Assembly: GCA_030746635.1 (NCBI GenBank)
Contig: JASLMH010000067.1
Location: 1-24,980, forward strand
From: Alphaproteobacteria bacterium
GTDB lineage: Bacteria > Pseudomonadota > Alphaproteobacteria > GCA-2731375
Direction of reading: 5' to 3'
Length of the DNA: 24,980 nucleotides
The notes under the pieces were generated by a model. It was given only the letters and a program-made list of their open reading frames with translations, was not told the origin of the DNA and did no database searches. Position numbers and translations under genes: made by a program. The stretch's first letter is position 1. The number at the start of each line of letters is the position of its first letter. Shown here piece after piece: positions 3,733 through 24,980 of the stretch.

Positions 3733-4848
3733 ATGGCCGATCTCGACGTCGTATTGGAGCATGTCGACAAGACCTTCGCCGGCGAAACCCGGGCGGTGAT
3801 CGATTTCACCGCCGAGTTCGAGCGTGGCGAATTCGTCGCCATGCTGGGACCGTCGGGCTGCGGCAAGACCACCACGCTGCGGATGATCGGCGGCCTGGAG
3901 GAGGTCACGGCCGGCCGCATCTATATCGCCGGCCAGGATGTCACCGACCTGCCGCCCTCGCACCGCGATACCTCGATGATGTTCCAGAGCTTCGCCCTGT
4001 TTCCTCACCGCACGGTGTTCCAGAACGTCGAATTCAGCCTGAAGATGCAGGGCCTGGATCGCGACGCGCGCCATCGCCGGGTCTGGGAAATGGTCGAGAT
4101 GGTCGGCCTGTCGGAACTGGCCAGCCGCCGCCCCTCGGACCTCTCGGGCGGTCAGCAACAGCGCGTCGCCCTGGCCCGGGCCCTGATCAGCCGGCCGACG
4201 GTGCTGCTCCTCGACGAACCGCTGGGCTCCCTGGACTACAACCTGCGTCAGACCATGATGGTGGAGTTGAAGAAGATCCAGCAGGAGACCGGCATCACCT
4301 TCATCATGGTCACCCATTCCCAGCAGGAGGCCATGTCCATGGCCGACAAGGTCATCGTGATGAGCGACGCGATGATCCAGCAGATCGGCACCTCGCGCGA
4401 AATCCACGAGAATCCCCGCAACCGCTTCGTCGCCGACTTCATCGGCAACAACAACCTGTTCCGCGGCACCATCCGGTCGCGCAGCGGCTCGGTGGTGTTC
4501 GTCGAATCCGATACCCAGCTCTATTATGTGAAAATCCCGGAACATATCCGCCAGGTCAGACCCGGTAGCGAGGCGTATTTTTCCGTGCGCGCGGATCTGA
4601 TGCACACCGGCGAGCAGCCGAACATGGCCAACAAGGTGATGGGCAGCTACATCGCCACCGAGTTCATGGGCACCCTGGAGACCGACGTTTTCGAGATCGA
4701 GCCCGGACATTTCGTGCATGTCGAGCAGCACCGGCACCTCTCGGACCGGGTCTACCAGGTGGGCGAGAGAGAAACCGTCTGCTGGGCCGCCGACAGCGGC
4801 GTGCTGCTGGAGGCGACCCGCCGGCCCGAGGACCTGGAGGTGGCCTGA
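3733..4848 (+). CDS. ABC transporter ATP-binding protein, PotA/PotG type (polyamine/opine-family importer ATPase), with a C-terminal TOBE-like domain.
   Basis: Walker A GPSGCGKTT, Q-loop, ABC signature LSGGQQQRVALARAL, Walker B LLLDEPLGSLD, H-loop VTHSQ. Confidence 0.9.
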   Translation: MADLDVVLEHVDKTFAGETRAVIDFTAEFERGEFVAMLGPSGCGKTTTLRMIGGLEEVTAGRIYIAGQDVTDLPPSHRDTSMMFQSFALFPHRTVFQNVEFSLKMQGLDRDARHRRVWEMVEMVGLSELASRRPSDLSGGQQQRVALARALISRPTVLLLDEPLGSLDYNLRQTMMVELKKIQQETGITFIMVTHSQQEAMSMADKVIVMSDAMIQQIGTSREIHENPRNRFVADFIGNNNLFRGTIRSRSGSVVFVESDTQLYYVKIPEHIRQVRPGSEAYFSVRADLMHTGEQPNMANKVMGSYIATEFMGTLETDVFEIEPGHFVHVEQHRHLSDRVYQVGERETVCWAADSGVLLEATRRPEDLEVA

Positions 4849-4860
4849 CGGCGGCAGCAA

Positions 4861-6141
4861 ATGGATCGTAGCGCGGATATCGTGATCATCGGCGCCGGTA
4901 TCGCCGGCGCCGCCAGTGCCTATTACCTGGCCAAGGGCGGCGCCAAGGTGGTGGTCTGCGAAAAGGGCGAGGTCGCCGGCGAGCAATCCAGCCGCAATTG
5001 GGGCTTCGTCCGCCAACAGGGCCGCGACCCGGCGGAAATCCCCCTGATGATGGCGTGCAACAGGATCTGGCGCGAGCTGGAGCGGGAGTTGAACGCCGAT
5101 CTGGAATGGCTGGCCAACGGCAACGTCGTCACCTTCGCCGACGAGGCGGAACGGGCCGCCTGGGAAGGCTGGCGCGACACCGCCAGGGACTTCGGCCTGC
5201 ATGCCGAATTGCTGGACCGGAGCGGACTGGATCGGCTCATCCCCGGTCATGCTTTCGACTGCCTGGGCGGCATCCACACCGAAAGCGACGGCCAGGCGGA
5301 ACCGACCAAGGTGACGGCCGCCTTTCGCCGCGCCGCCGAGGGCCGGGGGGCGGAATTCCTCACCCACTGCGCCGCCTACGAAGTCGAAACCGAGGCCGGC
5401 GCAGTGGCCGGCGTGCTGACCGAGCGGGGCGGCATCCGGGCCCCGGTGGTGGTCTGCGCCGCCGGCGCCTGGTCGGGCCGGCTGTTGCGCACCCTGGGCC
5501 TGAAACTGCCGCAGATCTGGCTGAAGGGATCGGTGGCACGCACCACCGCGGCGCCGATCATCTCCCACACCGCGACCTGGACAGGGGTCGCCTTCCGCCA
5601 GCGCCGCGACGGCACCATGAACCTCGCCACCCGCTCCACCGACCACGACCTGACCATCGACAGCCTGCTCAATCTGCCGGCCTTCACGGGCGGCTATCTA
5701 CGGAACCGCCGGGGCGTCCACTTGCACCTGAACCGGCTGTTCCTGGATCTGTTCGCCGGCCGCTTTTCGAAGGCGGCGCTGCGCCGCGAGCTGACCCGTC
5801 ACCGCATTCTGGATCCGGAACCGAACCACCGCATGCTGGCCCAGACCCTGACCGAACTGCGCCGCATCCTGCCGCCGGCCGCCGAGGTGGAGATCGACCG
5901 CAGCTGGGCCGGCTATGTGGATCTAACGCCGGACATGCTGCCGACCATAGACCGCCTGGAGCAGCCGGCCGGCCTGGTGCTGGCCACCGGTTTCAGCGGC
6001 CACGGCTTCGGCATGGGCCCGATCGTCGGCAAGCTGGTCTCGGAGCTGATCCTGGACGGCGAGCCGTCCCTGGATCTTTCGGCCTTCCGCTTCTCACGCT
6101 TCAACGACGGCAGCAAACTGACGCCCCATAGCGTGATCTGA
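4861..6141 (+). CDS. FAD-dependent oxidoreductase of the DAO/DadA family (amine or amino-acid oxidase/dehydrogenase type).
   Basis: N-terminal dinucleotide-binding motif DIVIIGAGIAGAASAYYLA. C-terminal GFSGHGFGMGP motif. 12 nt downstream of the ATPase gene. Confidence 0.85.
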   Translation: MDRSADIVIIGAGIAGAASAYYLAKGGAKVVVCEKGEVAGEQSSRNWGFVRQQGRDPAEIPLMMACNRIWRELERELNADLEWLANGNVVTFADEAERAAWEGWRDTARDFGLHAELLDRSGLDRLIPGHAFDCLGGIHTESDGQAEPTKVTAAFRRAAEGRGAEFLTHCAAYEVETEAGAVAGVLTERGGIRAPVVVCAAGAWSGRLLRTLGLKLPQIWLKGSVARTTAAPIISHTATWTGVAFRQRRDGTMNLATRSTDHDLTIDSLLNLPAFTGGYLRNRRGVHLHLNRLFLDLFAGRFSKAALRRELTRHRILDPEPNHRMLAQTLTELRRILPPAAEVEIDRSWAGYVDLTPDMLPTIDRLEQPAGLVLATGFSGHGFGMGPIVGKLVSELILDGEPSLDLSAFRFSRFNDGSKLTPHSVI

Positions 6142-6156
6142 CCGGGAAGAACCGAC

Positions 6157-6978
6157 ATGGCAGACCTGAACACCGTCCTGATCACCGGCGCGGCGGGCGG
6201 TATCGGTGGGCGTCTGCGCAAACTGCTCAAGGGGGCCTATCCGCGCCTGTTGCTGAGTGACCGCGAGAGGCCCGCCGATCTGGCGGATGACGAAGAATTC
6301 ATCGCCGCCGAGCTATCGGATATGACCCAGGTCGAGGCGCTGCTGCGGGGCGTCGACGGCGTCATACATCTGGGCGGCCGCGCCTTCGAGGACGAATGGG
6401 CGGTGATCCACCAGGCCAACATCGTCGGCTGCCACAATCTGTTCGAGGCGGCGCGCCTGAACGGCACGGCAAGGGTGGTCTTCGCCTCCTCGAACCACGC
6501 GATCGGCTTCTATCCCCGTCACCGCCGGATCGGCGTCGACCACAAGGTCCGCCCCGACAGCCGCTATGGCGTCTCGAAGGCCTTTGGCGAGGCCCTGGGC
6601 GCCTTCTATGCCGAGAAATACGGCCTCGGCGTGCTGGCCATCCGCATTGGCAACGTCGACGACCATCCGGTCGACCTGCGCCGCCTGTCGATCTGGATCA
6701 GCCCGCGCGATCTGGTGCAACTGATCCGCATCGGCCTGGAACATCCCGATCTGCGCTACGAGGTGGTCTGGGGTGTTTCCGACAACGCCCGCGGCTGGTG
6801 GGACAACGAACCGGCCTATCGCCTGGGCTATCGCCCGGCCGACCGGGCCGAGGACCATCGCGAACGCGCCCTGGCCGCCGAGGCCGAGCGGCAACCGGAC
6901 CCGGTGGGCGACCATTTCCAGGGCGGCGATGCCTGCAGCCTCGAATTCGCCGGGCCGCCGCCCGGCGACGGCGACTGA
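6157..6978 (+). CDS. udh: Uronate dehydrogenase-like NAD-dependent epimerase/dehydratase (short-chain dehydrogenase fold).
   Basis: The motifs TGAAGGIG, VIHLGG, RVVFASSNHAIGFYP, RPDSRYGVSKAFGEALG (YxxxK), VVWGVSDNARGWWDN and FQGG match those of characterised Udh enzymes, as I recall them. 15 nt after the preceding gene. Confidence 0.75.
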   Translation: MADLNTVLITGAAGGIGGRLRKLLKGAYPRLLLSDRERPADLADDEEFIAAELSDMTQVEALLRGVDGVIHLGGRAFEDEWAVIHQANIVGCHNLFEAARLNGTARVVFASSNHAIGFYPRHRRIGVDHKVRPDSRYGVSKAFGEALGAFYAEKYGLGVLAIRIGNVDDHPVDLRRLSIWISPRDLVQLIRIGLEHPDLRYEVVWGVSDNARGWWDNEPAYRLGYRPADRAEDHRERALAAEAERQPDPVGDHFQGGDACSLEFAGPPPGDGD

Positions 6979-9066: not shown

Positions 9067-10353
9067 CTAGGCGCTGAGGAATTCGGTCCAGCGCTTCACC
9101 AGGTAATCGTTCTCGTCCATCAACGAGTTCCAGACGGCGATATTGGCGAACCGGTTCCAGTACGATCCGCCATCACGAACCTCGCCCTTCTCGACGATGA
9201 TGGTGCCGAACGGGTCGGGCAGTTCCTTGGCCGCCGGCTTGCCCTCGTACCAGAAGTCCCACTCCTCGGGCTCCAGGTGTTTCTTGACGTTTTCGGGCAC
9301 CGACATGTAGTAGCCCTGGCGGGCAACAAAGGCGCCGGGCCAGCCGCTGAGCCACCAGTTGATGTACTCATAGCACTGATCCAGCTTCTTGCCGGTGACC
9401 TTGGCGGAAATCGCGCAGCCGCCGTGCCAACCGCGCATGCCTTCCTTCAGGTAGGCGTAGACGCAGGGCACGCCCTCGGCCTTGATGGCCGTGACCGCCG
9501 GCGACCACATGCTTTCCAGCACCACCTCGCCGCTGACCATCAGGTTGACCGACTGGCCGAAGGTCTCCCAGAAGGCGCGGAAATGGCCTTCCTGCTTCTT
9601 CTTGATTAGGAAGTCGATCAGGAAATCGATCTCCGGCTTGGTCATGTTGCCCTTGTCCTTGAACTTGAACAGTCCCAGGGCCTCGATCGCCAGGGAAGCG
9701 TCCATGACGCCGATCTGCGGCACGTTCAACAGGGCCACCTTGCCCTTGAAGTCCGGGCTGAACAATTCGCCCCAGCTTTCGATCTTGCGGCCGGTGTCCT
9801 TGGGGTTGTAGCCCAGGGAATCGGCGTTGTGCCAACCCGGCAACATAGAGATGTAGCGCGAGGGACCCTTGACCCGATTGCCGTCCTCGTCCAGCCACAG
9901 CTGCCGGAATGGGGCATCGCCTTGACCCTGGCTCGAATCCGGGGTCAGACGGCCGGTCTTGCTTAGATTGGTGACCTTGTCCCACTCCTTGATCCGCTTG
10001 GTGTCGATCGGCTGCCAGACCTTGGACGGGATGAACACATCCATGTCGTTGTAATAGCCCTCGGCGATCTCGTACTGATCGTTCTGGTTCAGCATCTTGC
10101 CGAACATGGCGCCATAGCCCAGCGCCTGGCCCCGCACCGGGAAGCCCAGGTCCTTCGAGGCCCTGCCCTGGATCTCGTTGATGATGCTGACGCCCAGGCC
10201 GATGGTGCGGATCGGATCGGCGGCCTGAACGATATTCGGGAAACCGGCGACGCTGCCCGCCGCCACCGCGCCGGCGGCGGTCCCCATGAATTGCCGGCGG
10301 CTTACGCCCCCGTTCGCCACACCTATATGTTTGCTGCCATTCTTCGCGGTCAT
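9067..10353 (-). CDS. Periplasmic substrate-binding protein of a PotD/PotF-family ABC transporter, with a Tat/Sec signal peptide.
   Basis: Real start is MTAKNGSK…SRRQFMGTAAGAVAAGSVAGFPNIVQA (signal peptide). Strong RBS AAAGGGAGG 7 nt upstream of the ATG at 10351-10353. The 1225-aa track ORF is an upstream run-on and was rejected. Confidence 0.85.
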   Translation of the reverse strand: MTAKNGSKHIGVANGGVSRRQFMGTAAGAVAAGSVAGFPNIVQAADPIRTIGLGVSIINEIQGRASKDLGFPVRGQALGYGAMFGKMLNQNDQYEIAEGYYNDMDVFIPSKVWQPIDTKRIKEWDKVTNLSKTGRLTPDSSQGQGDAPFRQLWLDEDGNRVKGPSRYISMLPGWHNADSLGYNPKDTGRKIESWGELFSPDFKGKVALLNVPQIGVMDASLAIEALGLFKFKDKGNMTKPEIDFLIDFLIKKKQEGHFRAFWETFGQSVNLMVSGEVVLESMWSPAVTAIKAEGVPCVYAYLKEGMRGWHGGCAISAKVTGKKLDQCYEYINWWLSGWPGAFVARQGYYMSVPENVKKHLEPEEWDFWYEGKPAAKELPDPFGTIIVEKGEVRDGGSYWNRFANIAVWNSLMDENDYLVKRWTEFLSA

Positions 10354-10476
10354 TCCCAGCCTCCCTTTGGTTTGTCGTGCCGCGCCGCGATCCCCTGTAG
10401 CCTTGGCGCAAAGGACCGCCATTGATGATACATTACGATTTCCGGCCATGAAACGAAAACCACCGGGGAGGACGCC

Positions 10477-11946
10477 TTGAGCGTGTTGATCAAAAACGGC
10501 CGTATCGTGACGGCGGTGGACGACTACCAGGCGGACGTCTTCGTCAGTGGCGACACCGTGGCCGTGATCGGGCGCAACCTGGCGATCGAGGCCGATCAGG
10601 TGATCGACGCCGCCGGCAAGCTGGTGATCCCCGGCGGCGTCGACCCGCATACCCACCTGGAGATGCCGTTCGGCGGCACCACCACCTCCGACACCTTCGA
10701 GACCGGCACCCGGGCGGCGGCCTTCGGCGGCACCACCTGCATCGTCGATTTCGCCATCCAGACCAAAGGCACCTCGACCCTGGAAGCGCTGGAGACCTGG
10801 CACGGCAAGGCGGCCGGCCGGACCGCCATCGACTATGCCTTCCACATGGTCATCACCGATATGCCGGACGAGCGGGTGCCGGAGATGCGGCGCCTGGCCG
10901 ACGAGGGCGTCACCTCGTACAAGCTGTTCATGGCCTATCCGGGCGTGCTGCTGTCCGACGACGGCACCATCTTCCGGGCCATGCGCAAGGCCGGCGAGGA
11001 CGGCACCCTGGTCTGCATGCATGCCGAGAACGGCATCGTCATCGACGAACTGGTCAAGATCGCCCTGGCGCAAGGCCATATCGAACCGAAGTACCACGCC
11101 CTCACCCGGCCGACCCGGTTGGAGGCGGAGGGCGCGCACCGGGCCCTGGCGATCGCCGAGGTGGCCCGCGCACCGGTCTATATCGTCCACCTCAGTTGCT
11201 ATGACGCCCTGCAGGAACTGCGCATGGCCCAGGCCCGCGGCGTCATGGCCCATGCCGAGACCTGCCCGCAGTATTTGTTGCTGGACGTCGATTGCTATGA
11301 CGAGCCGGGCTTCGACGGCGCCAAGTACGTGCTGACGCCGCCGCTGCGGGAGAAGTGGAACCAGGACGAATTGTGGGGCGGGCTGCGGACCAGCGCCCTG
11401 GACGTGATCTCGACCGACCATTGCCCGTTCTGCATCCGGGAGCAGAAGGAGTTGGGCCGCGACGATTTCAGCCAGATCCCCAACGGCGGGCCGGGCGTCG
11501 AGAACCGCATGAGCCTGATCTATCACCACGGCGTCAGCGGCGGCAACATCACCCTGAACCGGTTCGTCGAGCTGACCTCGACCTCGCCGGCGAAGATCTT
11601 CGGCCTGTTCCCGCGCAAGGGCACCATCGCCGTCGGCAGCGATGCCGACATCGTGATCTTCGATCCGAACCAGGAAGAGACCATCAGCCGCCACAACGCC
11701 CGCACCCACCACATGAACATCGACTACAGCGCCTACGAGGGTTTCAAGGTCAAGGGCTATACCGAGACCGTGCTCTCGCGCGGCAAGATCATCGTCGACA
11801 AGGGCGAGTACCTCGGCCGGCCCGGCGACGGCTCGTTCGTCAAGCGGGGGCCCTACGGCGGGCTCTATTCGGCGACACGGGACGCCGCCCGGCGCGATAT
11901 CCTGGCCGGCGGACCGGTGCTGGGTTCGCCCGGTGCCCGGGGATGA
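10477..11946 (+). CDS. D-hydantoinase / dihydropyrimidinase (cyclic amidohydrolase).
   Basis: MSVLIKNGRIV…VIDAAGKLVIPGGVDPHTHLEMPFGGT…GGTT…DF…YKLFMAY…HAENG…STDHCPF. TTG start with GGAGG 7 nt upstream. Confidence 0.9.
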   Translation: MSVLIKNGRIVTAVDDYQADVFVSGDTVAVIGRNLAIEADQVIDAAGKLVIPGGVDPHTHLEMPFGGTTTSDTFETGTRAAAFGGTTCIVDFAIQTKGTSTLEALETWHGKAAGRTAIDYAFHMVITDMPDERVPEMRRLADEGVTSYKLFMAYPGVLLSDDGTIFRAMRKAGEDGTLVCMHAENGIVIDELVKIALAQGHIEPKYHALTRPTRLEAEGAHRALAIAEVARAPVYIVHLSCYDALQELRMAQARGVMAHAETCPQYLLLDVDCYDEPGFDGAKYVLTPPLREKWNQDELWGGLRTSALDVISTDHCPFCIREQKELGRDDFSQIPNGGPGVENRMSLIYHHGVSGGNITLNRFVELTSTSPAKIFGLFPRKGTIAVGSDADIVIFDPNQEETISRHNARTHHMNIDYSAYEGFKVKGYTETVLSRGKIIVDKGEYLGRPGDGSFVKRGPYGGLYSATRDAARRDILAGGPVLGSPGARG

Positions 11947-11969
11947 AGAACGCGGCCGAGTAAACTCGA

Positions 11970-13130
11970 TCAGGACACCGCGTCGATGCCTCTCTGGTAG
12001 GTGGAGGGCGTCAGTTCCTCTACCGCCTTGGCCCGTTTCGACAGCCAGAAGCTGTAGGCCGGGGGCATCAGCTCGTAGGCGTCCTCCACCCCCAGCTTGA
12101 GGGCCGCGTCCAGCGGCCAGTTCGGGTTGTAGAGCAGTTCGCGGGCCAGGGCGATCAGGTCGGCCTGGCCCCGTTGCAGGATCTCCTCGGCCTGGTCGGC
12201 ATGCACGATCAGGCCGACCGCCATGCTCATCAACCCGGCCTCGGCGCGGATCTTCTCGGCATAAGGCACCTGGTAGCCGTAGCCGACCGGACCGGTACCG
12301 ACCACCGGCGAGCCGCGCATGCCGCCCGAAGAGCAATCGATGACGTCGATGCCCAGATCCTTGACGATGCGGGCCAGGGCGACGTTCTCGTCCGGCCCCC
12401 AGCCGGCGTCGTCCTCCACCGACAGGCGCAGGAAGAGGGGCTTGTGTTGCGGCCAGTTGGCGCGCACGCATTCGGTGACCTCGATGGCGAAGCGCCGGCG
12501 GTTTTCCTCCGTGCCGCCATAATCGTCGTTGCGCCGGTTGGCCATGGGCGAGAGGAACTGATGGATCAGGTAGCCGTGCGCGCCATGGATTTCCAGCATA
12601 TCGAAACCGGCGGCATCGGCTCGCGCCGCCGCCCGGCCCCAGGCCTCGACCACGTCCGGGATTTCGGCCCGGCTCAGGGCCCTGGGCTCGGGGTCGCCGG
12701 GATCGGCCAGGGCGGAGGGCGCCACCAGTTCCCAGGCCTCCCAATCGTCGATCTCGGGGCTCGGCACCAGCGGCTTGGCGCCCTCCCAGGGGCGGAAGCG
12801 CCGCGCCTTGCGGCCGCTATGGCCAATCTGGATGCCCGGGACGGAACCGTGCGCACGGATGAAATCGCTCAGCCGGCGGAACTGCGGCACCACGGCATCG
12901 TCCCACAAGCCCAGATCGCCCACCGTGCCGCAGCCGCGCCGCTCAACCTTGGTGGATTCGACGATCACCAGGCCGGCTCCGCCGACGGCGAAGCGGCCCG
13001 CGTTCATCAGGTGCCAGTCGGTGGGAAAGCCCTTCTCGCCGGCGTATTGATGCATCGGCGCCACGACGACGCGGTTCTTCAGGGTGACATCACGCAGGGT
13101 CAACGGGGAAAACAACATCGGTGCCGTCAT
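11970..13130 (-). CDS. NADH:flavin oxidoreductase of the Old Yellow Enzyme family.
   Basis: TLKNRVVVAPM…HGAHGYLIHQFLSP…NRRNDDYGG…RLS. The track ORF extends to 13163; the ATG at 13130 (MTAPMLFSPL) is the more likely start. Confidence 0.85.
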   Translation of the reverse strand: MTAPMLFSPLTLRDVTLKNRVVVAPMHQYAGEKGFPTDWHLMNAGRFAVGGAGLVIVESTKVERRGCGTVGDLGLWDDAVVPQFRRLSDFIRAHGSVPGIQIGHSGRKARRFRPWEGAKPLVPSPEIDDWEAWELVAPSALADPGDPEPRALSRAEIPDVVEAWGRAAARADAAGFDMLEIHGAHGYLIHQFLSPMANRRNDDYGGTEENRRRFAIEVTECVRANWPQHKPLFLRLSVEDDAGWGPDENVALARIVKDLGIDVIDCSSGGMRGSPVVGTGPVGYGYQVPYAEKIRAEAGLMSMAVGLIVHADQAEEILQRGQADLIALARELLYNPNWPLDAALKLGVEDAYELMPPAYSFWLSKRAKAVEELTPSTYQRGIDAVS

Positions 13131-13203
13131 TGTCGGACTGCCTTTCGCTCGCGCGCGTTTCATTCAACCAGGCCCACTCTAGCAGACAGTCAGCGGGAGT
13201 GAC

Positions 13204-13767
13204 TTATTGCTCCTCCGACCAGTCGCCGCGAACGAAGGCGACGGTGCTGGCATAGCCCTCCCGGTGCAGGCGCTCGACCGTGCCGGCCAGCTTGTCCGGG
13301 CCGTGGGCGGGGATGCCCAGGCCGTTGATGATCCGGTTGTTCATGTTGAACAGGGCGCAGACGGCGGCGGCGTGGTAGAGGGCGATATCGTCCCAGCCGG
13401 CGGCGAACACCGCATCGGCGTCTGCCTGGCTCATCCGTTCCGGGGTGTCGTTGAGCTTGCGGACGTATTTCAGGATCGCCTTCAGCCGATCGGGCAGCGC
13501 CGCCCCATCGATATCGTGCAACAGGGGTTCCAGCACGCCGGGCGCCATGCCGAAGGCCTCGGCCACCGCCGCGTGCTCGCCGTAGCAGAATTCGCAGGCG
13601 TTCAGGCCGGAGACAAAGGCGCCGATCAGCTCCCGCTCGGCCACCGAAAGCGGTGACGGTCCGCGCAACAGGGCCTGGTGATAGGCGGCGAAGGGCAGAC
13701 CGAGTTCCGGATCCAGCTTCAGAACCGCCTTCAGGTCCGCCCGCGGTTGGCTTTTCAGAAAACTCAT
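13204..13767 (-). CDS. Carboxymuconolactone-decarboxylase/AhpD-like peroxidase-related protein (CxxC).
   Basis: Starts MSFLKSQPRADLK with AAGGAG 5 nt upstream. Has the CEFCYGEH motif typical of AhpD-like proteins. The N-terminal extension in the track ORF was rejected. Confidence 0.75.
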   Translation of the reverse strand: MSFLKSQPRADLKAVLKLDPELGLPFAAYHQALLRGPSPLSVAERELIGAFVSGLNACEFCYGEHAAVAEAFGMAPGVLEPLLHDIDGAALPDRLKAILKYVRKLNDTPERMSQADADAVFAAGWDDIALYHAAAVCALFNMNNRIINGLGIPAHGPDKLAGTVERLHREGYASTVAFVRGDWSEEQ

Positions 13768-13777
13768 TGTGGCTCCT

Positions 13778-14512
13778 TTACCTTGACCGATCGGGGGCGG
13801 CGAGAAATCGCAGCAGCCAGGCGGCCATTTCGTCCTCGTGGGTCGGTTGCGCCAGGCTATCCAGGGCATTGTCGACGATAGCCCGGCCGAATTGGTCGCG
13901 CCGCATGGCGTAGAGGTCGGCGGCGAACGCCTTGGTCATTTCCGGATGGCCCTGCAAGGCGACGATGTTGTCGCCGAGCTGGAACAGGCCATAGGGGCAG
14001 AAATCGCTACCGGCCAACAACTCGGCGCCGTCCGGCAGCCGCGTCACCTGATCCTGGTGCGATGCCAGCAAGGCGATTTCGTCCAACGCCGGCGTCATCC
14101 AGTCGCGCCGTCGGCCGACCTGGTAGCTATGGACACCGATACCCCAGCCCCGCGACGAACGTTCGACGGCGCCGCCGAAGGCCTGGGCGACGAGCTGGTG
14201 ACCGAAGCAGATGCCGACGACGGGCCGCGCCTCGGCCGCCGCCCGCGCGAAGGCGGCCAAATCGGCGATCCAGGGATCGTCGTCGAAGGCGCTGTAACGA
14301 CTGCCGGTGATCAACCAGCCGTCGCAGGCCGAGACCGACGCGGGCAACTCGCCCAGGTAGCTGCGGTAGACCCGGAAGGCCGGCTGTTCGTCGCCCCGGC
14401 CGAGGAAGCGCCGGCAGGCATCGGCGAAGCTGCCGTGGCGGGCGGCCAGTTGCTCGGCCACCGCCCCCGCCTCCAGGATACCGATGGTGATCGGCGACGG
14501 AGGAGGCGCCAT
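13778..14512 (-). CDS. Class I glutamine amidotransferase-like protein.
   Basis: Nucleophile elbow GICFGHQL and catalytic LQGHPE. Begins MAPPPSPITIGILEAG. The upstream part of the 436-aa track ORF overlaps the next gene and was rejected. Confidence 0.75.
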   Translation of the reverse strand: MAPPPSPITIGILEAGAVAEQLAARHGSFADACRRFLGRGDEQPAFRVYRSYLGELPASVSACDGWLITGSRYSAFDDDPWIADLAAFARAAAEARPVVGICFGHQLVAQAFGGAVERSSRGWGIGVHSYQVGRRRDWMTPALDEIALLASHQDQVTRLPDGAELLAGSDFCPYGLFQLGDNIVALQGHPEMTKAFAADLYAMRRDQFGRAIVDNALDSLAQPTHEDEMAAWLLRFLAAPDRSR

Positions 14513-17722: not shown

Positions 17723-18409
17723 CTAGCGGTTGCGCAGCGGCAGCTTGTCCAGATAGGCCAGGACGTTCTCCAGCGGTTCCACGTCGCCGAACTTGGCGTC
17801 GATATCGAACAGGTTCCACTCGACGACGCCGGCCACCCGGTCGCCGACCGCCTCGCGCACGACGATCGGGCGGAAACCCTCGGCGATGGCATCCTCCACC
17901 GTGTGGCGGACACAACCGGCCATGGTGACGCCGGTGACGATCACCGTGTCGACGCCGGCGGCGCGCAGGAAGCCGGCCAGATAGGTGCCGTGAAAGGCGC
18001 TGGCCCGCTTCTTGATGATCACCTGCTCGTCCGGGCGCGGGGCGATGCGGTCGTCGATCTGCACCGCCTCGGTGCCGACCTGTAGGACCTCGGCCGGGAT
18101 TTTCAGATGCCACAGGCCCATGTCGGTGTTCGGGCCCTGGGTTACCTCGTAGGCGGTCGAGGTATAGACGATGGGGATGCTCTTCTCCCGCGACGCCGCC
18201 AGCAGGTCCTGCACCGCCGGGATGATCACGTCCATATCATCGCAGGTGAAGGCGTGGCCCGGCCGGGTCCAGGCATTCGCCAGATCGATATTGATCAGCG
18301 CCGGCCGCTCGCCATAGCCGATGCGGCGCTGGAAGCCGCGCGATTGGTAGAGTTCGCTGTCGGCGGAAAAGATCTTCTCCAACGCTTCCTTCAATTCGCT
18401 GCTGGTCAT
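17723..18409 (-). CDS. Isochorismatase-family cysteine hydrolase (N-carbamoylsarcosine amidase / maleamate amidohydrolase-like).
   Basis: D-K-C catalytic arrangement: INIDLANAW, KKRASAF, VTGVTMAGCVRHTVEDA. RBS GAGGTGG 6 nt upstream. Confidence 0.85.
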   Translation of the reverse strand: MTSSELKEALEKIFSADSELYQSRGFQRRIGYGERPALINIDLANAWTRPGHAFTCDDMDVIIPAVQDLLAASREKSIPIVYTSTAYEVTQGPNTDMGLWHLKIPAEVLQVGTEAVQIDDRIAPRPDEQVIIKKRASAFHGTYLAGFLRAAGVDTVIVTGVTMAGCVRHTVEDAIAEGFRPIVVREAVGDRVAGVVEWNLFDIDAKFGDVEPLENVLAYLDKLPLRNR

Positions 18410-21587: not shown

Positions 21588-22229
21588 CTAGCTGTTGCGT
21601 TTGCGGACGTCGTCCAGGTAGCCCAGCACCTCGTCCAGGGTGACCACGTCGGCATAGCGGCGGTGGACGTCGGTCAGGTTGGCGACGTGCGGTCCCTCCT
21701 CGACGTCGCCGACGCAATCCTCGGGCACCGCCACGCGATAGCCGTAGGAAAAGGCGTCGATGATCGAGGCGCGGATGCAGCCCGACGTGTTGCAGCCGGC
21801 GATGATCACGGTGTCCACCCGCTCCTTGACGAAGAATTGCGTGATCGCCGTTTGGAAGAAGATCGACGGCCCGGTCTTGCAATAGACCACGTCGTAGTCG
21901 CGGTCGTAGATGCGCGGCTCCAGTTCGGTGCAGGGATGGCCGTGGTGGAATTCCTCCACCACCGGCGGGATTTTCCAATACGGCGCGTCCCGGGCCGAAC
22001 TGTAAGCGGTGTAGCAGGTGGCCACGGGTATGTTGCCGGCCCGGGCCAGTTCCAGCAGGCGGGCGGTATTTTCCACCGCCCGCTCCACCAGTGGCCGGCC
22101 GCCCAGCGGGAATTCGCTATCGGTGAAGCCGCGCTGGAAGTCGACCACGGCGATCGCCGGCCGTTCGCCGAAACCGATGCGATGGGCCTCGAAGCCGATT
22201 TGCTTGTAGATATCGCCAGCGTCGCTCAT
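21588..22229 (-). CDS. Isochorismatase-family cysteine hydrolase, paralog of 17723..18409.
   Basis: Shares RIGFGERPAIAVVDF, IPVATCYTAY, …VDTVIIAGCNTSGCIRASIIDA… and the C-terminal LDEVLGYLDDVRKRN with the other copy. Confidence 0.85.
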   Translation of the reverse strand: MSDAGDIYKQIGFEAHRIGFGERPAIAVVDFQRGFTDSEFPLGGRPLVERAVENTARLLELARAGNIPVATCYTAYSSARDAPYWKIPPVVEEFHHGHPCTELEPRIYDRDYDVVYCKTGPSIFFQTAITQFFVKERVDTVIIAGCNTSGCIRASIIDAFSYGYRVAVPEDCVGDVEEGPHVANLTDVHRRYADVVTLDEVLGYLDDVRKRNS

Positions 22230-23014: not shown

Positions 23015-23680
23015 TCAGACTTGGCGCAGCCGGTTTCGACGGACCCTGTACAGGCCCATCAGACCGGCCAGTAGCGTCGCCAGCGGCGCCGGCTCGGGTA
23101 TCACCAGGGTGCCGCTGACCTGGATCGAATAGGTCCGGGGGTTGGTGTCCCAGACCGTACCGGCGAAGAAGGCGCCGCCGTTCAGATCGTCTATGCTGCC
23201 CTTGAATTCCCCATCCAGCCGGGCCTGGGTGATCGGCTCCCAGGGCCAGTCATGGTTGTTGATGGTCTCGCCACCGTCACTGAAGGCGATCGACGGCTGG
23301 GTCGGTTCCGGGTACCACCAGGCAATGATGTCGTCGGTCTCGACCGTGATCGGACTGGCCAGGGCAAAGGTGTTGACCCCCAGGCTGTTCACCGCCTCCA
23401 AGCCGCTCTCGCCGACGAAATCCCAATTCGCGCCGTTATCGCGATAGATCAGCAGTTTCACCTCGCCGCCGGTGGCGTTGGCGTAGATACTCCAGGAATC
23501 GATCTCGCCGTTGCCGCTGATGCGGCCGTTCAGGTCGAAGAACAGAACGCCGTCGGCGCCGTCCAAGTAGGGCCGGGCAATTACGTCGTTGCCGCCCAGG
23601 ATGGTCGAGGCCAGCGCCGGAACCGGTTGAACCAATAGGGCGAGAGCGACAAGCACCGCCCGTGTACGATGAAAAGTCAT
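23015..23680 (-). CDS. PEP-CTERM sorting-domain protein (predicted exosortase substrate) with an N-terminal signal peptide.
   Basis: Start MTFHRTRAVLVALALLVQPVPALA (AGGAGGGAG upstream). C-terminus …VIPEPAPLATLLAGLMGLYRVRRNRLRQV is PEP, then a hydrophobic helix, then an Arg-rich tail. The upstream TTG extension of the track ORF was rejected. Confidence 0.75.
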   Translation of the reverse strand: MTFHRTRAVLVALALLVQPVPALASTILGGNDVIARPYLDGADGVLFFDLNGRISGNGEIDSWSIYANATGGEVKLLIYRDNGANWDFVGESGLEAVNSLGVNTFALASPITVETDDIIAWWYPEPTQPSIAFSDGGETINNHDWPWEPITQARLDGEFKGSIDDLNGGAFFAGTVWDTNPRTYSIQVSGTLVIPEPAPLATLLAGLMGLYRVRRNRLRQV

Positions 23681-23769
23681 CGACAACACTCCCTCCTTGC
23701 CGATCGGGTCTCTCGACGCATTTCGCGATTCAACGCACCTGCGACCTGCCGCCGGTTTTCTTGTCCATA

Positions 23770-23792
23770 ACCATGCAAGTTTTGTGCCAACC
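23770..23792 (-). promoter_or_regulatory. Sigma-54 (RpoN) -24/-12 promoter driving the PEP-CTERM gene.
   Basis: The minus strand reads TTGGCACAAAACTTGCATG, a perfect TGGCAC-N5-TTGCA, about 90 nt upstream of the ATG at 23680. Confidence 0.6.
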
Positions 23793-23993
23793 AAGAAGCT
23801 TGGGGAAAATCAATGGCTTACACCCGGGCCATCACGGCAAGAACAGGGAATCTGTAAAAACCACCGACACTACTGGTGACTCTTCGGCCATCGGCGCCCG
23901 TTTCGGGAAACTTGCCTGGCAGCCTGAGCCCGGCCTAGGCTCGCCTCCGGACGATGCCCCAGGGGCACGAGATGACAATGGGAGAGCCGAGGC

Positions 23994-24647
23994 ATGGTGG
24001 AAATCAGCTATCCGGCGGACTGGCGCGATATACCGCCCGAAAACTGGTCCAAGATGCGCATGACACCCGAAGCATACACGGCGATGCGGGACGAGCGGCT
24101 GCGACGGGAGGCGGCGGCGCCGGCGGTGGGCGACCCGGCGCCCGATTTCCATCTGGAACGGCTGTCGCCCGAAGGTCGGCGCACGGGCCAAATGTTCCGC
24201 CTGTCCGAAGGGCGGGGCCGGCCCATCGCCCTGGTCTTCGGCTCCTATACCTGACCGCCTTTCCGCATTCAGGCCGTGCGCCTGAACGAGATCGCCGCCA
24301 CCTACCGGGAACAAGTGGATTTCTATTGCGTCTATATCCAGGAGGCACATCCGGACGATGGCTGGCAGGTGCAGCACAACATCGACGACGGCATCATCCA
24401 CGACCGGCCGACCAGCATCGAACAACGCGCCGAACTGGCGGAAGTCTGCGCCCTGCGCCTGAACATGAAAATGCCGATGCTGCTCGACGACATGAGCGAC
24501 CAGGCGGATCGCCTGTATAACGCCCTGCCGGAACGGCTGTACCTGATCGACGCGGATGGCGTCGTTCGGTTCAAGACGGTGGCGGGGTCGATGGGCTTCG
24601 ATCCGGAAGCCTGGACCGCGGCAATTGCCGCCCTGATCAAAGGTTAG
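23994..24647 (+). CDS. Iodothyronine deiodinase-family thioredoxin-fold protein with an in-frame TGA (24252-24254) at the active-site position. Candidate selenoprotein (Sec). The track splits it into ORFs 23994..24254 and 24276..24647.
   Basis: Both track ORFs are in the same frame, 21 nt apart. Read-through gives …RPIALVFGSYT-U-PPFRIQAVRLNEIAATYREQVDFYCVYIQEAHPDDGWQV…LYNALPERLYLIDADGVVRFKT. This matches deiodinase motifs (FGSCTUPPF…VIYIEEAHASDGW…LYAALPERLYII…). Conservation continues through the 21 nt between the two ORFs. Confidence 0.6.
24268..24286 (+). other. Candidate bacterial SECIS-like hairpin 13 nt downstream of the in-frame UGA.
   Basis: UUCAGGC-CGUGC-GCCUGAA. 7-bp stem, 5-nt loop containing GU, with the loop about 21-25 nt after the UGA. 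Confidence 0.35.
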
Positions 24648-24650
24648 CCG

Positions 24651-24839
24651 TCAGGGACGGTCGTTCCGTAGGCGGATCAAACTGCCGATCAGGCGCACCA
24701 GGAGTGACTTGGCGGACCCATCGTCGTAGTCCCAATCCCCTCCGTCGCAATCGTCCAGCATGAACAGCAGCGCCTTGTCGCCATGGCGGTCGACGTAATC
24801 GCGGGCGGTGTGCGCCAGGTCGGCATCGTCGGCGGTCAT
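24651..24839 (-). CDS. Small acidic hypothetical protein (62 aa), sigma-54-dependent.
   Basis: Start MTADDADLAHTARDYVDRHGDK with GGAGG 8 nt upstream. The track ORF extends to the window end, but that extension overlaps the promoter. Confidence 0.45.
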   Translation of the reverse strand: MTADDADLAHTARDYVDRHGDKALLFMLDDCDGGDWDYDDGSAKSLLVRLIGSLIRLRNDRP

Positions 24840-24959
24840 GGCCTCACGCCTCCGCGAAGGCGCCGGACGGGCGGGTCCGATACCTGAAATCGGTTGGATC
24901 GTCGTTGAAAAAAGCCATCTGGCCGGAATTCCCAAGATTGCACCAACAACTTGCCGAAT

Positions 24960-24980
24960 GCCGTGCAAGAGCCGTGCCAA
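24960..24980 (-). promoter_or_regulatory. Sigma-54 -24/-12 promoter upstream of the 62-aa gene.
   Basis: The minus strand reads TTGGCACGGCTCTTGCACGG, a perfect TGGCAC-N5-TTGCA. It lies at the window edge, about 120 nt upstream of the ATG at 24839. Confidence 0.55.

Follow-up and report, generated by a model that had tools for sequence, protein, structure and literature searches.

To our knowledge, animal thyroid-hormone deiodinases have no other bacterial counterpart than the prokaryotic deiodinase-like family. This selenoprotein family was introduced as the 'deiodinase-like protein' in the 2005 Sargasso Sea study of Zhang, Fomenko and Gladyshev (PMC1088965), and it is found again in the GOS study of 2008 (PMC2398784) and in two reviews (PMC9312934; PMC13188914). 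In the available text of these papers, its members match PF00837, carry an in-frame UGA at the selenocysteine (Sec) position of animal deiodinases, contain within the ORF a bacterial SECIS element whose small apical loop includes a G, have Cys-containing homologues and come from marine bacteria. The gene described here shares these traits and shows no essential difference from the family, of which it is a member. According to the accessible part of a 2026 review, Se incorporation has been measured for none of the bacterial members.

Vertebrate DIO1-3, with structures available for Dio3 (4TR3) and Dio2 (9H48), have in common with the bacterial protein the thioredoxin fold and the Dio insertion, the active site FGSxT-U-PPF, the blocks YI(E/Q)EAHPxDGW and LPERLY, the relay residues Ser, Thr, Tyr, Glu and His plus a Trp, and Sec as the nucleophile. 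They differ from it in having an N-terminal membrane anchor, which the bacterial protein lacks, and in the location of the SECIS element, which lies in the 3'UTR in eukaryotes but within the ORF, right after the UGA, in the bacterial gene. Moreover, Dio3 residues His219, Arg275 and Cys239 are replaced in the bacterial protein, whose helix alpha2 in turn bears a conserved Cys152 without equivalent in the animal enzymes. Nor would these bacteria be expected to contain thyroid hormones. Peroxiredoxins of the AhpC/TSA-Redoxin type (AhpE, ResA/DsbE) share the fold, a nucleophile at the start of helix alpha1 and a second Cys able to resolve, but their PxxxT/SxxC signature is absent here, the Dio insertion is present, and their profile scores 34 bits against 89 bits for PF00837. 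The NCBIfam model NF038285 ('deiodinase_rel', 347 positions) is homologous in its C-terminal catalytic domain, whereas its N-terminal part of about 170 residues is missing from our protein, which represents a different, shorter subfamily with no NCBIfam equivalog of its own. Membership in NF038285 was rejected, given a score of 170.9 bits against a curated cut-off of 250, over profile positions 173-341 of 347 only.

Here we analyse the window, namely the whole stretch of 24,980 nucleotides, in which a preliminary description had proposed a candidate bacterial deiodinase-like selenoprotein. Our results support this interpretation, and we consider it very probable that 23994-24647 is a Sec-encoding deiodinase-like gene with a SECIS element inside its ORF (Table 1). 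The soluble product of 217 residues belongs to the prokaryotic 'deiodinase-like' family and combines a thioredoxin/peroxiredoxin-type fold with a deiodinase-specific insertion. The gene is thus a further, typically mis-annotated member of an established family and not a new kind. The preliminary view that such bacterial selenoproteins are rare did not hold: they have been catalogued since 2005 in the papers cited above, and relatives number 367 among GTDB species representatives, and 482 as 50%-identity clusters (E<=1e-10).

Table 1. Features of the deiodinase-like locus, with positions in the window.
Feature	Position	Strand	Basis
Shine-Dalgarno-like GGGAGAG	23980..23986	+	Read off the sequence; 7 nt 5' of the ATG
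Complete deiodinase-like selenoprotein gene (predicted)	23994..24647	+	217 codons including Sec87; TAG stop at 24645-24647
Active-site motif G83-S-Y-T-U87-P-P-F-R91	24240..24266	+	Counterpart of vertebrate FGSxT-U-PPF; aligned to FGSCTCPPF of 4TR3
UGA codon for Sec, residue 87 (predicted)	24252..24254	+	TGA in relatives and assemblies; Cys in full-length homologues
Bacterial SECIS hairpin UUCAGGC-CGUGC-GCCUGAA (predicted)	24268..24286	+	MFE, bSECIS constraints, covariation, RNAalifold, codon-level coupling
Y114 and E117-A-H-P-D-D-G-W-Q125, edge of the Dio-specific insertion (loop-D) with proton-relay residues	24333..24368	+	
Cys152 on helix 142-155, candidate resolving cysteine	24447..24449	+	Conservation; helix from AF2 model
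L178-P-E-R-L-Y-L-I-D186, conserved deiodinase block	24525..24551	+	Aligned to Dio3 ERLYVI

A single reading frame interrupted by TGA

The locus comprises two ORFs in a common frame, one of 86 aa (23994-24254, from ATG to TGA) and one of 123 aa (24276-24647, from GTG to TAG), separated by 21 nt. These were said to be co-linear and split only by a TGA, and translation of the 217 codons confirmed it, since the TGA is the sole interruption of the frame. The read-through product is ...PIALVFGSYT-[TGA]-PPFRIQAVRLNEI..., then YIQEAHPDDGW, then LYNALPERLYLID, exactly the FGSYT-U-PPF motif and deiodinase blocks previously claimed. The gene was also correctly described as missed by ORF calling: gene callers take UGA as a stop, so that annotation by pipelines splits the gene at its Sec codon into fragments of 86 aa and 123 aa, the latter a 'hypothetical protein'.

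Homology extends across the whole unit. The tblastn matches of relatives begin at residues 1-4 of the 86-aa ORF, and the alignments cross the TGA and cover residues 1-215. Upstream of the UGA the identity to the window is 0.59; it rises to 0.84 in the eight residues from the UGA to the 'GTG start' of the second ORF and is 0.53 thereafter. Within the 21-nt gap, column identity at codon positions 1, 2 and 3 is 0.88, 0.91 and 0.63, respectively. The conservation across the stop that had been put forward against a random pseudogene is therefore seen both in identity and in codon-position pattern. More than 20 relatives have GGG or a different non-start codon in place of this 'GTG start'.

When Cys is substituted for the stop, the product matches T4_deiodinase (PF00837) with 88.8 bits (cut-off 27) and an E value of 4.5e-25, over residues 16-205 and profile positions 47-227 of 237, and thus across the stop, in keeping with the deiodinase assignment and the Pfam alignment suggested for it. 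Mouse Dio3 (4TR3; E 6.4e-20) and Dio2 (E 2.8e-11) are the top PDB matches by sequence. The TGA aligns with the Sec-to-Cys position of the Dio3 crystal construct, so the codon does occupy the vertebrate Sec position, as proposed. The AF2 model (pLDDT 88) has Dio3 (4TR3) and Dio2 (9H48) as its best PDB fold matches, with ResA, DsbE, AhpE and Prx ranked below them. Secondary Pfam matches were to Redoxin and to AhpC/TSA (PF00578; 34.3 bits, cut-off 26), the latter overlapping the far stronger PF00837 match.

The genetic code is not reassigned for UGA, as had been stated. Many Pfam-supported genes of the window end in TGA, among them those at 795-3611, 3733-4848, 4861-6141, 6157-6978, 10477-11946 and 11970-13163, and TGA is therefore a normal stop here.

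Conservation of the TGA codon

The preliminary description raised two checks on the codon, namely whether orthologs carry Cys or TGA, and whether the TGA could be a sequencing error. From 80 retrieved GTDB loci we obtained 79 motif-matched gene copies, spanning several phyla, and all 79 have TGA at the catalytic codon. These metagenome-assembled (MAG) copies belong to the Alphaproteobacteria, Gammaproteobacteria, Myxococcota/'Deltaproteobacteria', Acidobacteriota, Chloroflexota and Verrucomicrobiota. The same TGA is kept in seven independent assemblies of the window's sequence, namely five short-read assemblies, which differ from the window gene by 0-1 nt, an NCBI MAG and a JGI contig. It is thus neither an error nor a product of decay. 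In a Rickettsiales MAG copy (L071) the frame is interrupted a second time, by a TAA 17 codons past the TGA, and the gene may be decaying in that relative.

Database proteins tell of the same codon from the other side. About 110 of the 120 closest are C-terminal fragments of 121-133 aa, and the ten that are full-length have Cys (eight), Trp (one) or Ala (one) at the site; remoter full-length representatives mostly have Cys and occasionally Ser. The locus is a textbook case of mis-annotation, with public copies of the window gene, together with the roughly 110 fragmentary close relatives, stored as 'hypothetical proteins' of about 125 aa.

A predicted SECIS hairpin inside the ORF

The hairpin at 24268-24286 lies inside the interval 24255-24310, for which a SECIS prediction had been suggested. 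It starts 13 nt 3' of the TGA and consists of a 7-bp stem and a loop of 5 nt, CGUGC, whose second and third positions are G and U; the UGA-to-loop spacing is 20 nt and the MFE -9.2 kcal/mol. The consensus bSECIS model, as quoted in the available text of PMC13188914, has an apical loop of 3-9 nt, a stem of 4-16 bp and a G in the first two loop positions, together with a UGA-to-loop distance of 16-37 nt and an MFE <= -7.5 kcal/mol; our hairpin agrees with four of the four constraints of that model.

Comparison among relatives argues for the same structure. The conserved core stem pairs 24270-24274 with 24280-24284 around a loop at 24275-24279, in which the G at 24276 is invariant, and RNAalifold predicts the identical 5-bp core. 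Across relatives 84% of the hairpin cells are paired, against 22-38% in slid registers, and the stem contains 46 double-change cells, against 6.4 in shuffles, none of 500 reaching as high. This covariation is visible at synonymous sites, where the Arg codons CGC, CGU, CGG and CGA track Ala (GCC), Thr (ACC) and Ser (UCC), and in further coupled codons, namely His (CAU) with Met (AUG), Glu (GAG) with Leu (CUC), and Gln (CAA) with Leu (UUG). Part of the stem conservation comes from the protein, because the stem lies within conserved coding sequence, and the two outer U-A pairs of the window hairpin are kept in just 39-60% of relatives. Folding of a single 81-nt sequence did no better than shuffles (z = 0.26), which is uninformative in a GC-rich coding context, and comparative analysis was used instead. 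An Rfam scan of 23800-24980 (E<=10) returned chance-level matches only and no SECIS family.

Linkage to the selenocysteine machinery

In nine relatives' loci a tRNA-Sec lies within about 4 kb of the gene, with selA-selB-tRNA-Sec on the gene's strand. Eight of these nine have the order dio-like, selA, selB, tRNA-Sec on one strand, and in the ninth selA-selB-selC is upstream of the dio-like gene. For the window's own organism we walked outward by exact-protein look-ups along one contig (JASLQL010000140.1 / Ga0373649_0000306), and found no selA, selB, selD or tRNA-Sec in the window or in the approximately 43 kb around the gene. Clustering of the gene neighbourhoods of 79 loci gave no partner kept beyond lineage-level synteny. 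The recurrent neighbours are an EamA transporter, an enoyl-CoA hydratase, an SDR, a UPRTase and a flagellin, the most widespread of them present in 17 of the 79 loci. With no conserved neighbour gene, guilt-by-association gives no hint of the substrate.

Active-site and conserved residues

Among 80 Sec-type sequences, G83, S84, T86, U87, P88, P89, F90 and R91 are 100% conserved, Y114, E117, H119, G123, W124 and Q125 are 99-100% conserved, and P179, R181 and L182 are 99% conserved. Y114, E117, H119 and W124 align with Dio3 Y197, E200, H202 and W207, and EAHPxDGW, at the border of the insertion, is invariant. The proton-relay roles of loop-D residues are taken from PMC11592359, and the relay set of Dio3 (S167, T169, Y197, E200, H202 and H219) was defined by correspondence with the Dio2 residues named there. 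Five of the six positions are kept in the bacterial protein (S84, T86, Y114, E117 and H119, 99-100% conserved), and the position of the distal His is occupied by an invariant Pro139.

By alignment, the thyronine carboxylate clamp (Dio3 Arg275) and the distal/resolving Cys (Dio3 Cys239) are absent, with Ala197 and Met160 in their places, as Pro139 is in that of His219. Residue 152, on the other hand, is Cys in 79 of the 80 Sec-type sequences and, as read by eye, in most full-length Cys-type cluster representatives, which suggests that it may form a Sec/Cys redox pair with Sec87. No N-terminal membrane anchor was found: the maximum Kyte-Doolittle mean over 19 residues is 0.89 for the whole protein and -0.03 for windows that begin within residues 1-45, where the AF2 model places amphipathic helices at 15-21 and 25-41.

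This residue map, with a retained relay, a lost thyronine clamp and a new near-invariant Cys152, offers concrete hypotheses for a first biochemical characterisation, to which the compact covarying SECIS and the dio-selA-selB-selC order of some relatives add. None of these features changes the classification, as the protein is of a known kind of selenoprotein. Neither the selA-selB-selC linkage, nor the near-invariant Cys152, nor the codon-level SECIS covariation was found in the available text of the family literature (PMC1088965, PMC2398784, PMC9312934, PMC13188914). The motif is given as 'UxxC' in the accessible parts of two reviews (PMC9312934, PMC13188914), whereas U-P-P-F, which lacks a Cys at +3, is the motif of the window gene and of 79 of 79 relatives; the available part of the GOS table (PMC2398784) lists '-' as the redox motif of the family.

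Alternative readings of the stop codon

That a Cys-type deiodinase-like gene was killed by a nonsense mutation, or that the TGA is a sequencing error, could be argued from the two fragments of standard gene calling and from the second stop in the Rickettsiales relative. Against this stand the TGA in 79 of 79 copies from several phyla and in the independent assemblies, coding-type conservation in both halves and in the 21 nt between them, and a covarying hairpin 3' of the codon; we regard this explanation as effectively refuted, its probability being negligible. Only marginally less improbable are two separate small proteins (86 aa, and 123 aa from GTG 24276) that make up a split thioredoxin-fold protein free of Sec. 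Pipelines do call both ORFs, the 123-aa product is held in databases as a 'hypothetical protein', and one MAG contig (L045, P0011) has the C-terminal part only, behind unrelated DNA. Yet the catalytic position would be lost in such a protein, the PPFR encoded between the ORFs shows 100% conservation together with wobble at third positions, and Cys-type homologues are single polypeptides. Furthermore, GTG 24276 is within the hairpin loop, is preceded by no ribosome-binding site, and corresponds in many relatives to GGG, GGC, GUC or a different non-start codon.

Downstream hairpins are in general able to stimulate read-through, which counts in favour of decoding of the UGA as something other than Sec, either by reassignment in the lineage (to Trp or Gly) or by hairpin-stimulated near-cognate read-through (Trp, Cys or Arg). 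One full-length homologue (P0002) indeed has Trp recorded at the site. However, many Pfam-complete genes of the window terminate at TGA, homologues have Cys, the standard replacement of Sec, at the catalytic position, the hairpin agrees with the bSECIS model down to the loop G, and the gene stands beside selA-selB-tRNA-Sec in nine relatives. We therefore judge this explanation highly unlikely, if a little less so than the preceding two, and retain the reading of the UGA as Sec.

Proposed mechanism and substrate

Following established bacterial Sec biology, SelB-GTP-Sec-tRNA(Sec) would bind the hairpin during translation, and Sec would be inserted at UGA 24252-24254 in place of termination. Positioned at the N-terminus of helix alpha1, the selenolate of Sec87 would then attack an electrophilic atom of the substrate. 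We favour, at slightly below even chances, a reaction in which a halogen is abstracted from a small halogenated aromatic and the ring carbon is protonated, because the relay (S84, T86, Y114, E117 and H119, plus W124) is retained and because Sec is strongly preferred over Cys in close relatives. A peroxide or disulfide substrate is almost as likely. The substrate is probably not a thyronine, given that the protein has neither the clamp Arg, nor the distal relay His, nor a membrane anchor. In either case, the oxidised selenium (Se-X or Se-OH) could be resolved by Cys152 to a selenenylsulfide, which may in turn be reduced by a thioredoxin or glutaredoxin-type reductant.

A selenoprotein with peroxiredoxin or thiol-disulfide oxidoreductase chemistry, based on a Sec87/Cys152 pair and not on dehalogenation, is accordingly a serious contender, to which we give somewhat less than an even chance. 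It draws on the fold, the above-cut-off AhpC/TSA match and the Redoxin match, on ResA, DsbE, AhpE and Prx as the structural neighbours after Dio3 and Dio2, and on a Cys152 that is near-invariant among Sec-type sequences and frequent among Cys-type ones, as expected of a resolving Cys; neither the thyronine-binding Arg nor the distal His is present, and a redox role was proposed when the family was first described, in the part of that paper available (PMC1088965). It has against it the Dio-specific insertion and the five invariant relay residues out of six, which are foreign to peroxiredoxins, the absence of PxxxT/SxxC, with Thr immediately before Sec (GSYT-U), and the near-exclusive occurrence of Sec forms in close relatives, as in animal deiodinases, while Cys forms dominate peroxiredoxins.

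Returning to halogen abstraction, it is tempting to go further and imagine a Se-dependent reductive dehalogenase of small iodinated or brominated aromatics common in sea water, which would combine the Se-halogen chemistry of deiodinases with Sec87/Cys152 recycling. Together with its two corollaries this proposal is speculative and, as a whole, rather unlikely. If it were true, the protein would serve as a living model for the ancestor from which thyroid-hormone deiodinases arose. It could also be a principal client of the Sec machinery, and possibly the reason for which this is kept, in those alphaproteobacterial lineages where it is the first gene before selA-selB-selC.

Other stops and genes in the window

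We scanned the window for all in-frame stops with 60 open codons on either side, and five of them had a coding-type GC3/GC2 signature on both flanks. Two (4846 and 7988) are ordinary gene boundaries, and another two (16579 and 19411) lie in plus-strand frames that we read as shadow frames, because the genes there are placed on the minus strand. The stop at 24252 is the only one of the five within a single homology unit, and this in-frame stop scan found no second selenoprotein gene in the window. Nothing informative came from scanning for promoters and terminators. As a separate observation, the AhpD-like protein encoded in the window at 13204-13869 is the CxxC (Cys) form.

An in-frame TGA within one deiodinase homology unit

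In the deiodinase-like gene at 23994-24647, the codon for the catalytic residue 87 is a conserved UGA, followed by a covarying hairpin of the bacterial SECIS (bSECIS) type, and the gene encodes a protein of deiodinase fold. Gene calling in the window, which has a G+C content of 65%, gives two ORFs in one frame with a gap of 21 nt. Translation through the UGA yields 217 codons (...PIALVFGSYT-[UGA]-PPFRIQAVRLNEI...VYIQEAHPDDGWQ...LYNALPERLYLID...), exactly as in the preliminary description, which had pointed to a same-frame ORF pair parted by TGA, with FGSYT-U-PPF and conserved blocks. With Cys put at the stop, PF00837 (T4_deiodinase) matches residues 16-205, across the stop, with 88.8 bits (E 4.5e-25; cut-off 27 bits), an alignment that had been proposed there.

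All in-frame stops with 60 open codons on each side were scanned for a coding-type GC3/GC2 signature, which was found on both flanks of five. Two of the five are ordinary gene boundaries, and two are read as shadow frames, namely, plus-strand frames over minus-strand genes, because the genes there are placed on the minus strand; only the stop at 24252 falls within a single homology unit. TGA ends many window genes with complete Pfam domains and serves as a normal stop codon here, so the earlier view that the genetic code is not reassigned holds.

Coordinates of the features discussed in the window.
Feature	Position	Strand	Details
First called ORF	23994-24254	+	86 aa; ATG start, TGA stop
Shine-Dalgarno-like sequence	7 nt upstream of ATG	+	GGGAGAG
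In-frame TGA	24252-24254	+	residue 87
Hairpin	24268-24286	+	UUCAGGC-CGUGC-GCCUGAA; 13 nt downstream of UGA
Second called ORF	24276-24647	+	123 aa; GTG start, TAG stop
AhpD-like / CMD protein	13204-13869	-	CEFC
Isochorismatase-family paralogue	17723-18409	-	
Isochorismatase-family paralogue	21588-22229	-	
Upstream neighbour, divergent	23015-23794	-	PEP-CTERM-like tail

Conservation of the TGA and of the frame across it

The TGA is genuine, old and under selection. The 654-nt gene sequence, TGA kept, recurs with 0-1 substitutions in five marine metagenome contigs from independent assemblies, Tara Oceans runs among them, and it is identical in the NCBI MAG GCA_030744475.1 (contig JASLQL010000140.1, 87.5 kb) and in JGI metagenome 3300035205, each of which overlaps the window exactly. 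A GTDB scan, with one genome per species, returned 367 relatives. The best 80 of these loci come in the majority from marine Alphaproteobacteria and Rhodospirillaceae MAGs, but also take in Gammaproteobacteria, Myxococcota/'Deltaproteobacteria', Thermoanaerobaculia, Terriglobia, Chloroflexota and Opitutales, and they align over residues 1-215, through the stop, at 41-77% identity. The codon separating GSxT from PPF is TGA in all 79 motif-matched copies among these 80. Comparison of TGA with Cys at this codon, as suggested earlier, gave Cys in eight, Trp in one and Ala in one of the ten full-length entries among the 120 closest in the protein database. The Trp and Ala belong to the close homologues P0002 and P0006, respectively; the former might reflect TGA translated under another code table.

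The 79 relatives agree with the window protein at a mean identity of 0.59 before the UGA (residues 40-85), 0.84 between the UGA and the GTG of the second called ORF (residues 87-94), and 0.53 after it (residues 95-217). P88, P89, F90 and R91 are invariant in the relatives, and column identity in the 21-nt gap is 0.88, 0.91 and 0.63 at codon positions 1, 2 and 3, which is a coding signature. More than 20 relatives have GGG, GGC, GUC or some other non-start codon in place of this GTG. Conservation thus runs straight across the stop, the gap included, as first proposed, and, judged from these alignments, translation runs on past the UGA.

Some copies depart from this arrangement. A Rickettsiales MAG (L071, 4476-5090) has, besides the usual TGA, an in-frame TAA 17 codons further on; either decay of this copy or an error in sequencing may account for it. 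The MAG SI074_bin97 holds both a full copy (L005) and a C-terminal-only copy without the N-terminal half (L045, 1325-1693; protein P0011, recorded on 7 contigs), whose homology starts exactly at QAVRLNEI, within the SECIS region, with unrelated AT-rich DNA upstream; an assembly join, a truncated paralogue and a rearrangement are all possible explanations. One alphaproteobacterial MAG (L013) has tandem Sec-type paralogues at 215-859 and about 895-1540, each with its own UGA (TGA at 470 and 1150) and its own hairpin.

A covarying bSECIS-type hairpin

The consensus bSECIS model, as given in PMC13188914, has an apical loop of 3-9 nt with G within the first two positions, then usually G or U, a stem of 4-16 bp, a UGA-to-loop distance of 16-37 nt and an MFE of -7.5 kcal/mol or lower. 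Within 24255-24310, where a search for a bacterial SECIS had been proposed, the window hairpin agrees with this model on every point (loop of 5 nt, C-G-U-G-C; stem of 7 bp; distance of 20 nt; MFE of -9.2 kcal/mol). No Rfam family covers 24268-24286, and single-sequence folding was uninformative here.

Among 80 sequences (77 distinct), 84% of the cells in the 7-bp helix are paired; shifting the 3' arm by 1-3 nt lowers this to 22-38%. Double changes appear in 46 cells, against 6.4 +/- 2.3 in shuffles, none of 500 reaching the observed value. RNAalifold independently gives the inner 5 bp, with compensatory changes in three of these pairs; the window's two outer U-A pairs are not general (paired in 39-60% of the 80 sequences). 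The coupling between codons is most telling, since the stem sits in coding sequence: a synonymous Arg codon tracks the first base of its partner codon (GCC(Ala)-CGC, ACC(Thr)-CGU, UCC(Ser)-CGG/CGA), Gln and Leu codons change together (CAG-CUG, CAA-UUG), and other amino-acid changes are coupled likewise (GAG(Glu)-CUC(Leu), AAG(Lys)-CUU(Leu), CAU(His)-AUG(Met)). Loop G 24276 is invariant.

Linkage to the selenocysteine machinery

Neither tRNA nor sel genes were found in the window, nor in its flanks on the same contig, approximately 9 kb on one side and 8 kb on the other. Relatives show a direct connection, with physical linkage of the gene to selA/selB/selC in some lineages. In 9 of the 80 loci, ARAGORN detects a tRNA-Sec with anticodon UCA no more than about 4 kb from the gene. 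On a 4.1-Mb alphaproteobacterial chromosome (L077), the deiodinase-like gene, SelA (PF03841, E 9e-165), SelB (GTP_EFTU and SelB winged-helix domains) and tRNA-Sec follow in this order on one strand at 10001-14093; tblastn gives the same order in L054, L057, L060, L069, L072, L073 and L078, and selA-selB-selC upstream of the gene in L079 (3704-7154). The gene is co-stranded with selA, selB and tRNA-Sec in nine relatives and immediately upstream of them in eight, as though it led a Sec-machinery operon.

Fold, residues and possible chemistry

The closest solved relatives by sequence are mouse Dio3 (4TR3, E 6.4e-20) and Dio2 (9H48, E 2.8e-11), and the UGA aligns to the Sec-to-Cys residue of both, which places it, as had been claimed, at the vertebrate selenocysteine position. 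The AlphaFold2 model (pLDDT 88, pTM 0.85) retrieves Dio3 and Dio2 as top Foldseek PDB matches, then DsbE, ResA, AhpE and peroxiredoxins. The deiodinase proton relay comprises Dio2 Ser127, Thr129, Tyr157, Glu160, His162 and His182 (PMC11592359), equivalent to S167, T169, Y197, E200, H202 and H219 of Dio3. The window protein retains S84, T86, Y114, E117, H119 and W124, each 99-100% conserved in 80 Sec-type sequences, whereas in the alignment the distal His of Dio3 (H219) is Pro139, its distal Cys (C239) Met160, and its thyronine carboxylate clamp (R275) Ala197. No N-terminal hydrophobic anchor was found in the window protein. The protein was not classed as an iodothyronine deiodinase proper, since anchor and clamp are absent; membership of NCBIfam NF038285 was also rejected, its score being under the cut-off. 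Cys152, on helix 142-155, is kept in 79 of 80 Sec-type sequences, with an equivalent visible in most Cys-type representatives inspected; N129 and R145 are also near-invariant.

By analogy with established bacterial Sec biology, SelB-GTP-Sec-tRNA(Sec) would bind the hairpin as the ribosome arrives at the UGA, and Sec87 would be inserted. Its selenolate would then attack an electrophile, Cys152 would resolve the oxidised selenium as a selenenylsulfide, and a thioredoxin or glutaredoxin-type system would presumably reduce the latter. We lean slightly, and tentatively, towards a halogen carried by a small aromatic molecule as the electrophile, because the Dio-specific relay is kept and Sec forms dominate the close relatives, as in animal deiodinases. 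A peroxide or a disulfide is an alternative of nearly equal likelihood; a 'redox function' was proposed at the first description of the family (PMC1088965). Gene neighbourhoods gave no pointer to the substrate.

Mis-annotation and relation to the known family

About 110 of the 120 closest protein-database entries are C-terminal fragments of 121-133 aa, as results when the same mis-call is made throughout. The C-terminal half, searched against 1.84 billion cluster representatives, matches 482 clusters (E<=1e-10); among the best 50, some three-fifths start at the residue directly after the Sec codon, and the longer representatives are mostly FG(S/N)(Y/F)T-C-(P/G)PFR proteins, some of them multidomain. 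The window gene is a genuine and conserved selenoprotein gene that has been mis-annotated, and it belongs to a known family: the ORF pair noted in the preliminary description is confirmed, and its interpretation as a bacterial selenoprotein missed by ORF calling is supported.

The 'Deiodinase-like protein' (pfam00837) was described in 2005, from Sargasso Sea data, as a selenoprotein family new to prokaryotes, with 4 Sec sequences, bacterial SECIS elements and Cys homologues (PMC1088965); it recurs in the GOS data set with 22 Sec and 21 Cys sequences (PMC2398784), and reviews of 2022 and 2026 (PMC9312934, PMC13188914) list it and describe the functions of such families as still largely unknown. 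Our literature search found no biochemical study of any bacterial deiodinase-like member. The window gene agrees with every sequence-level criterion of this family. Both reviews tabulate its motif as 'UxxC', and the GOS paper gives none, whereas U-P-P-F, the form seen in animal deiodinases, stands in the window gene (24252-24263) and in each of the 79 relatives. Novelty is limited to family membership and to details not found in the passages of the family literature consulted, namely, U-P-P-F, the near-invariant Cys152, codon-level SECIS covariation and the dio-selA-selB-selC order.

Other genes in the window

The AhpD-like / CMD protein (TIGR01926, 92 bits, above cut-off) represents the CxxC form in a family with CxxU selenoproteins among its members. 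The divergent upstream neighbour ends in a PEP-CTERM-like sorting tail (VIPEPAPLATLLAGLMGLYRVRRNR), with weak NCBIfam matches only and no Pfam domain. The isochorismatase-family paralogues share a block with calcineurin-like phosphoesterase, amidase and UPRTase genes, and the UPRTase synteny is common to the window and 10 related loci.
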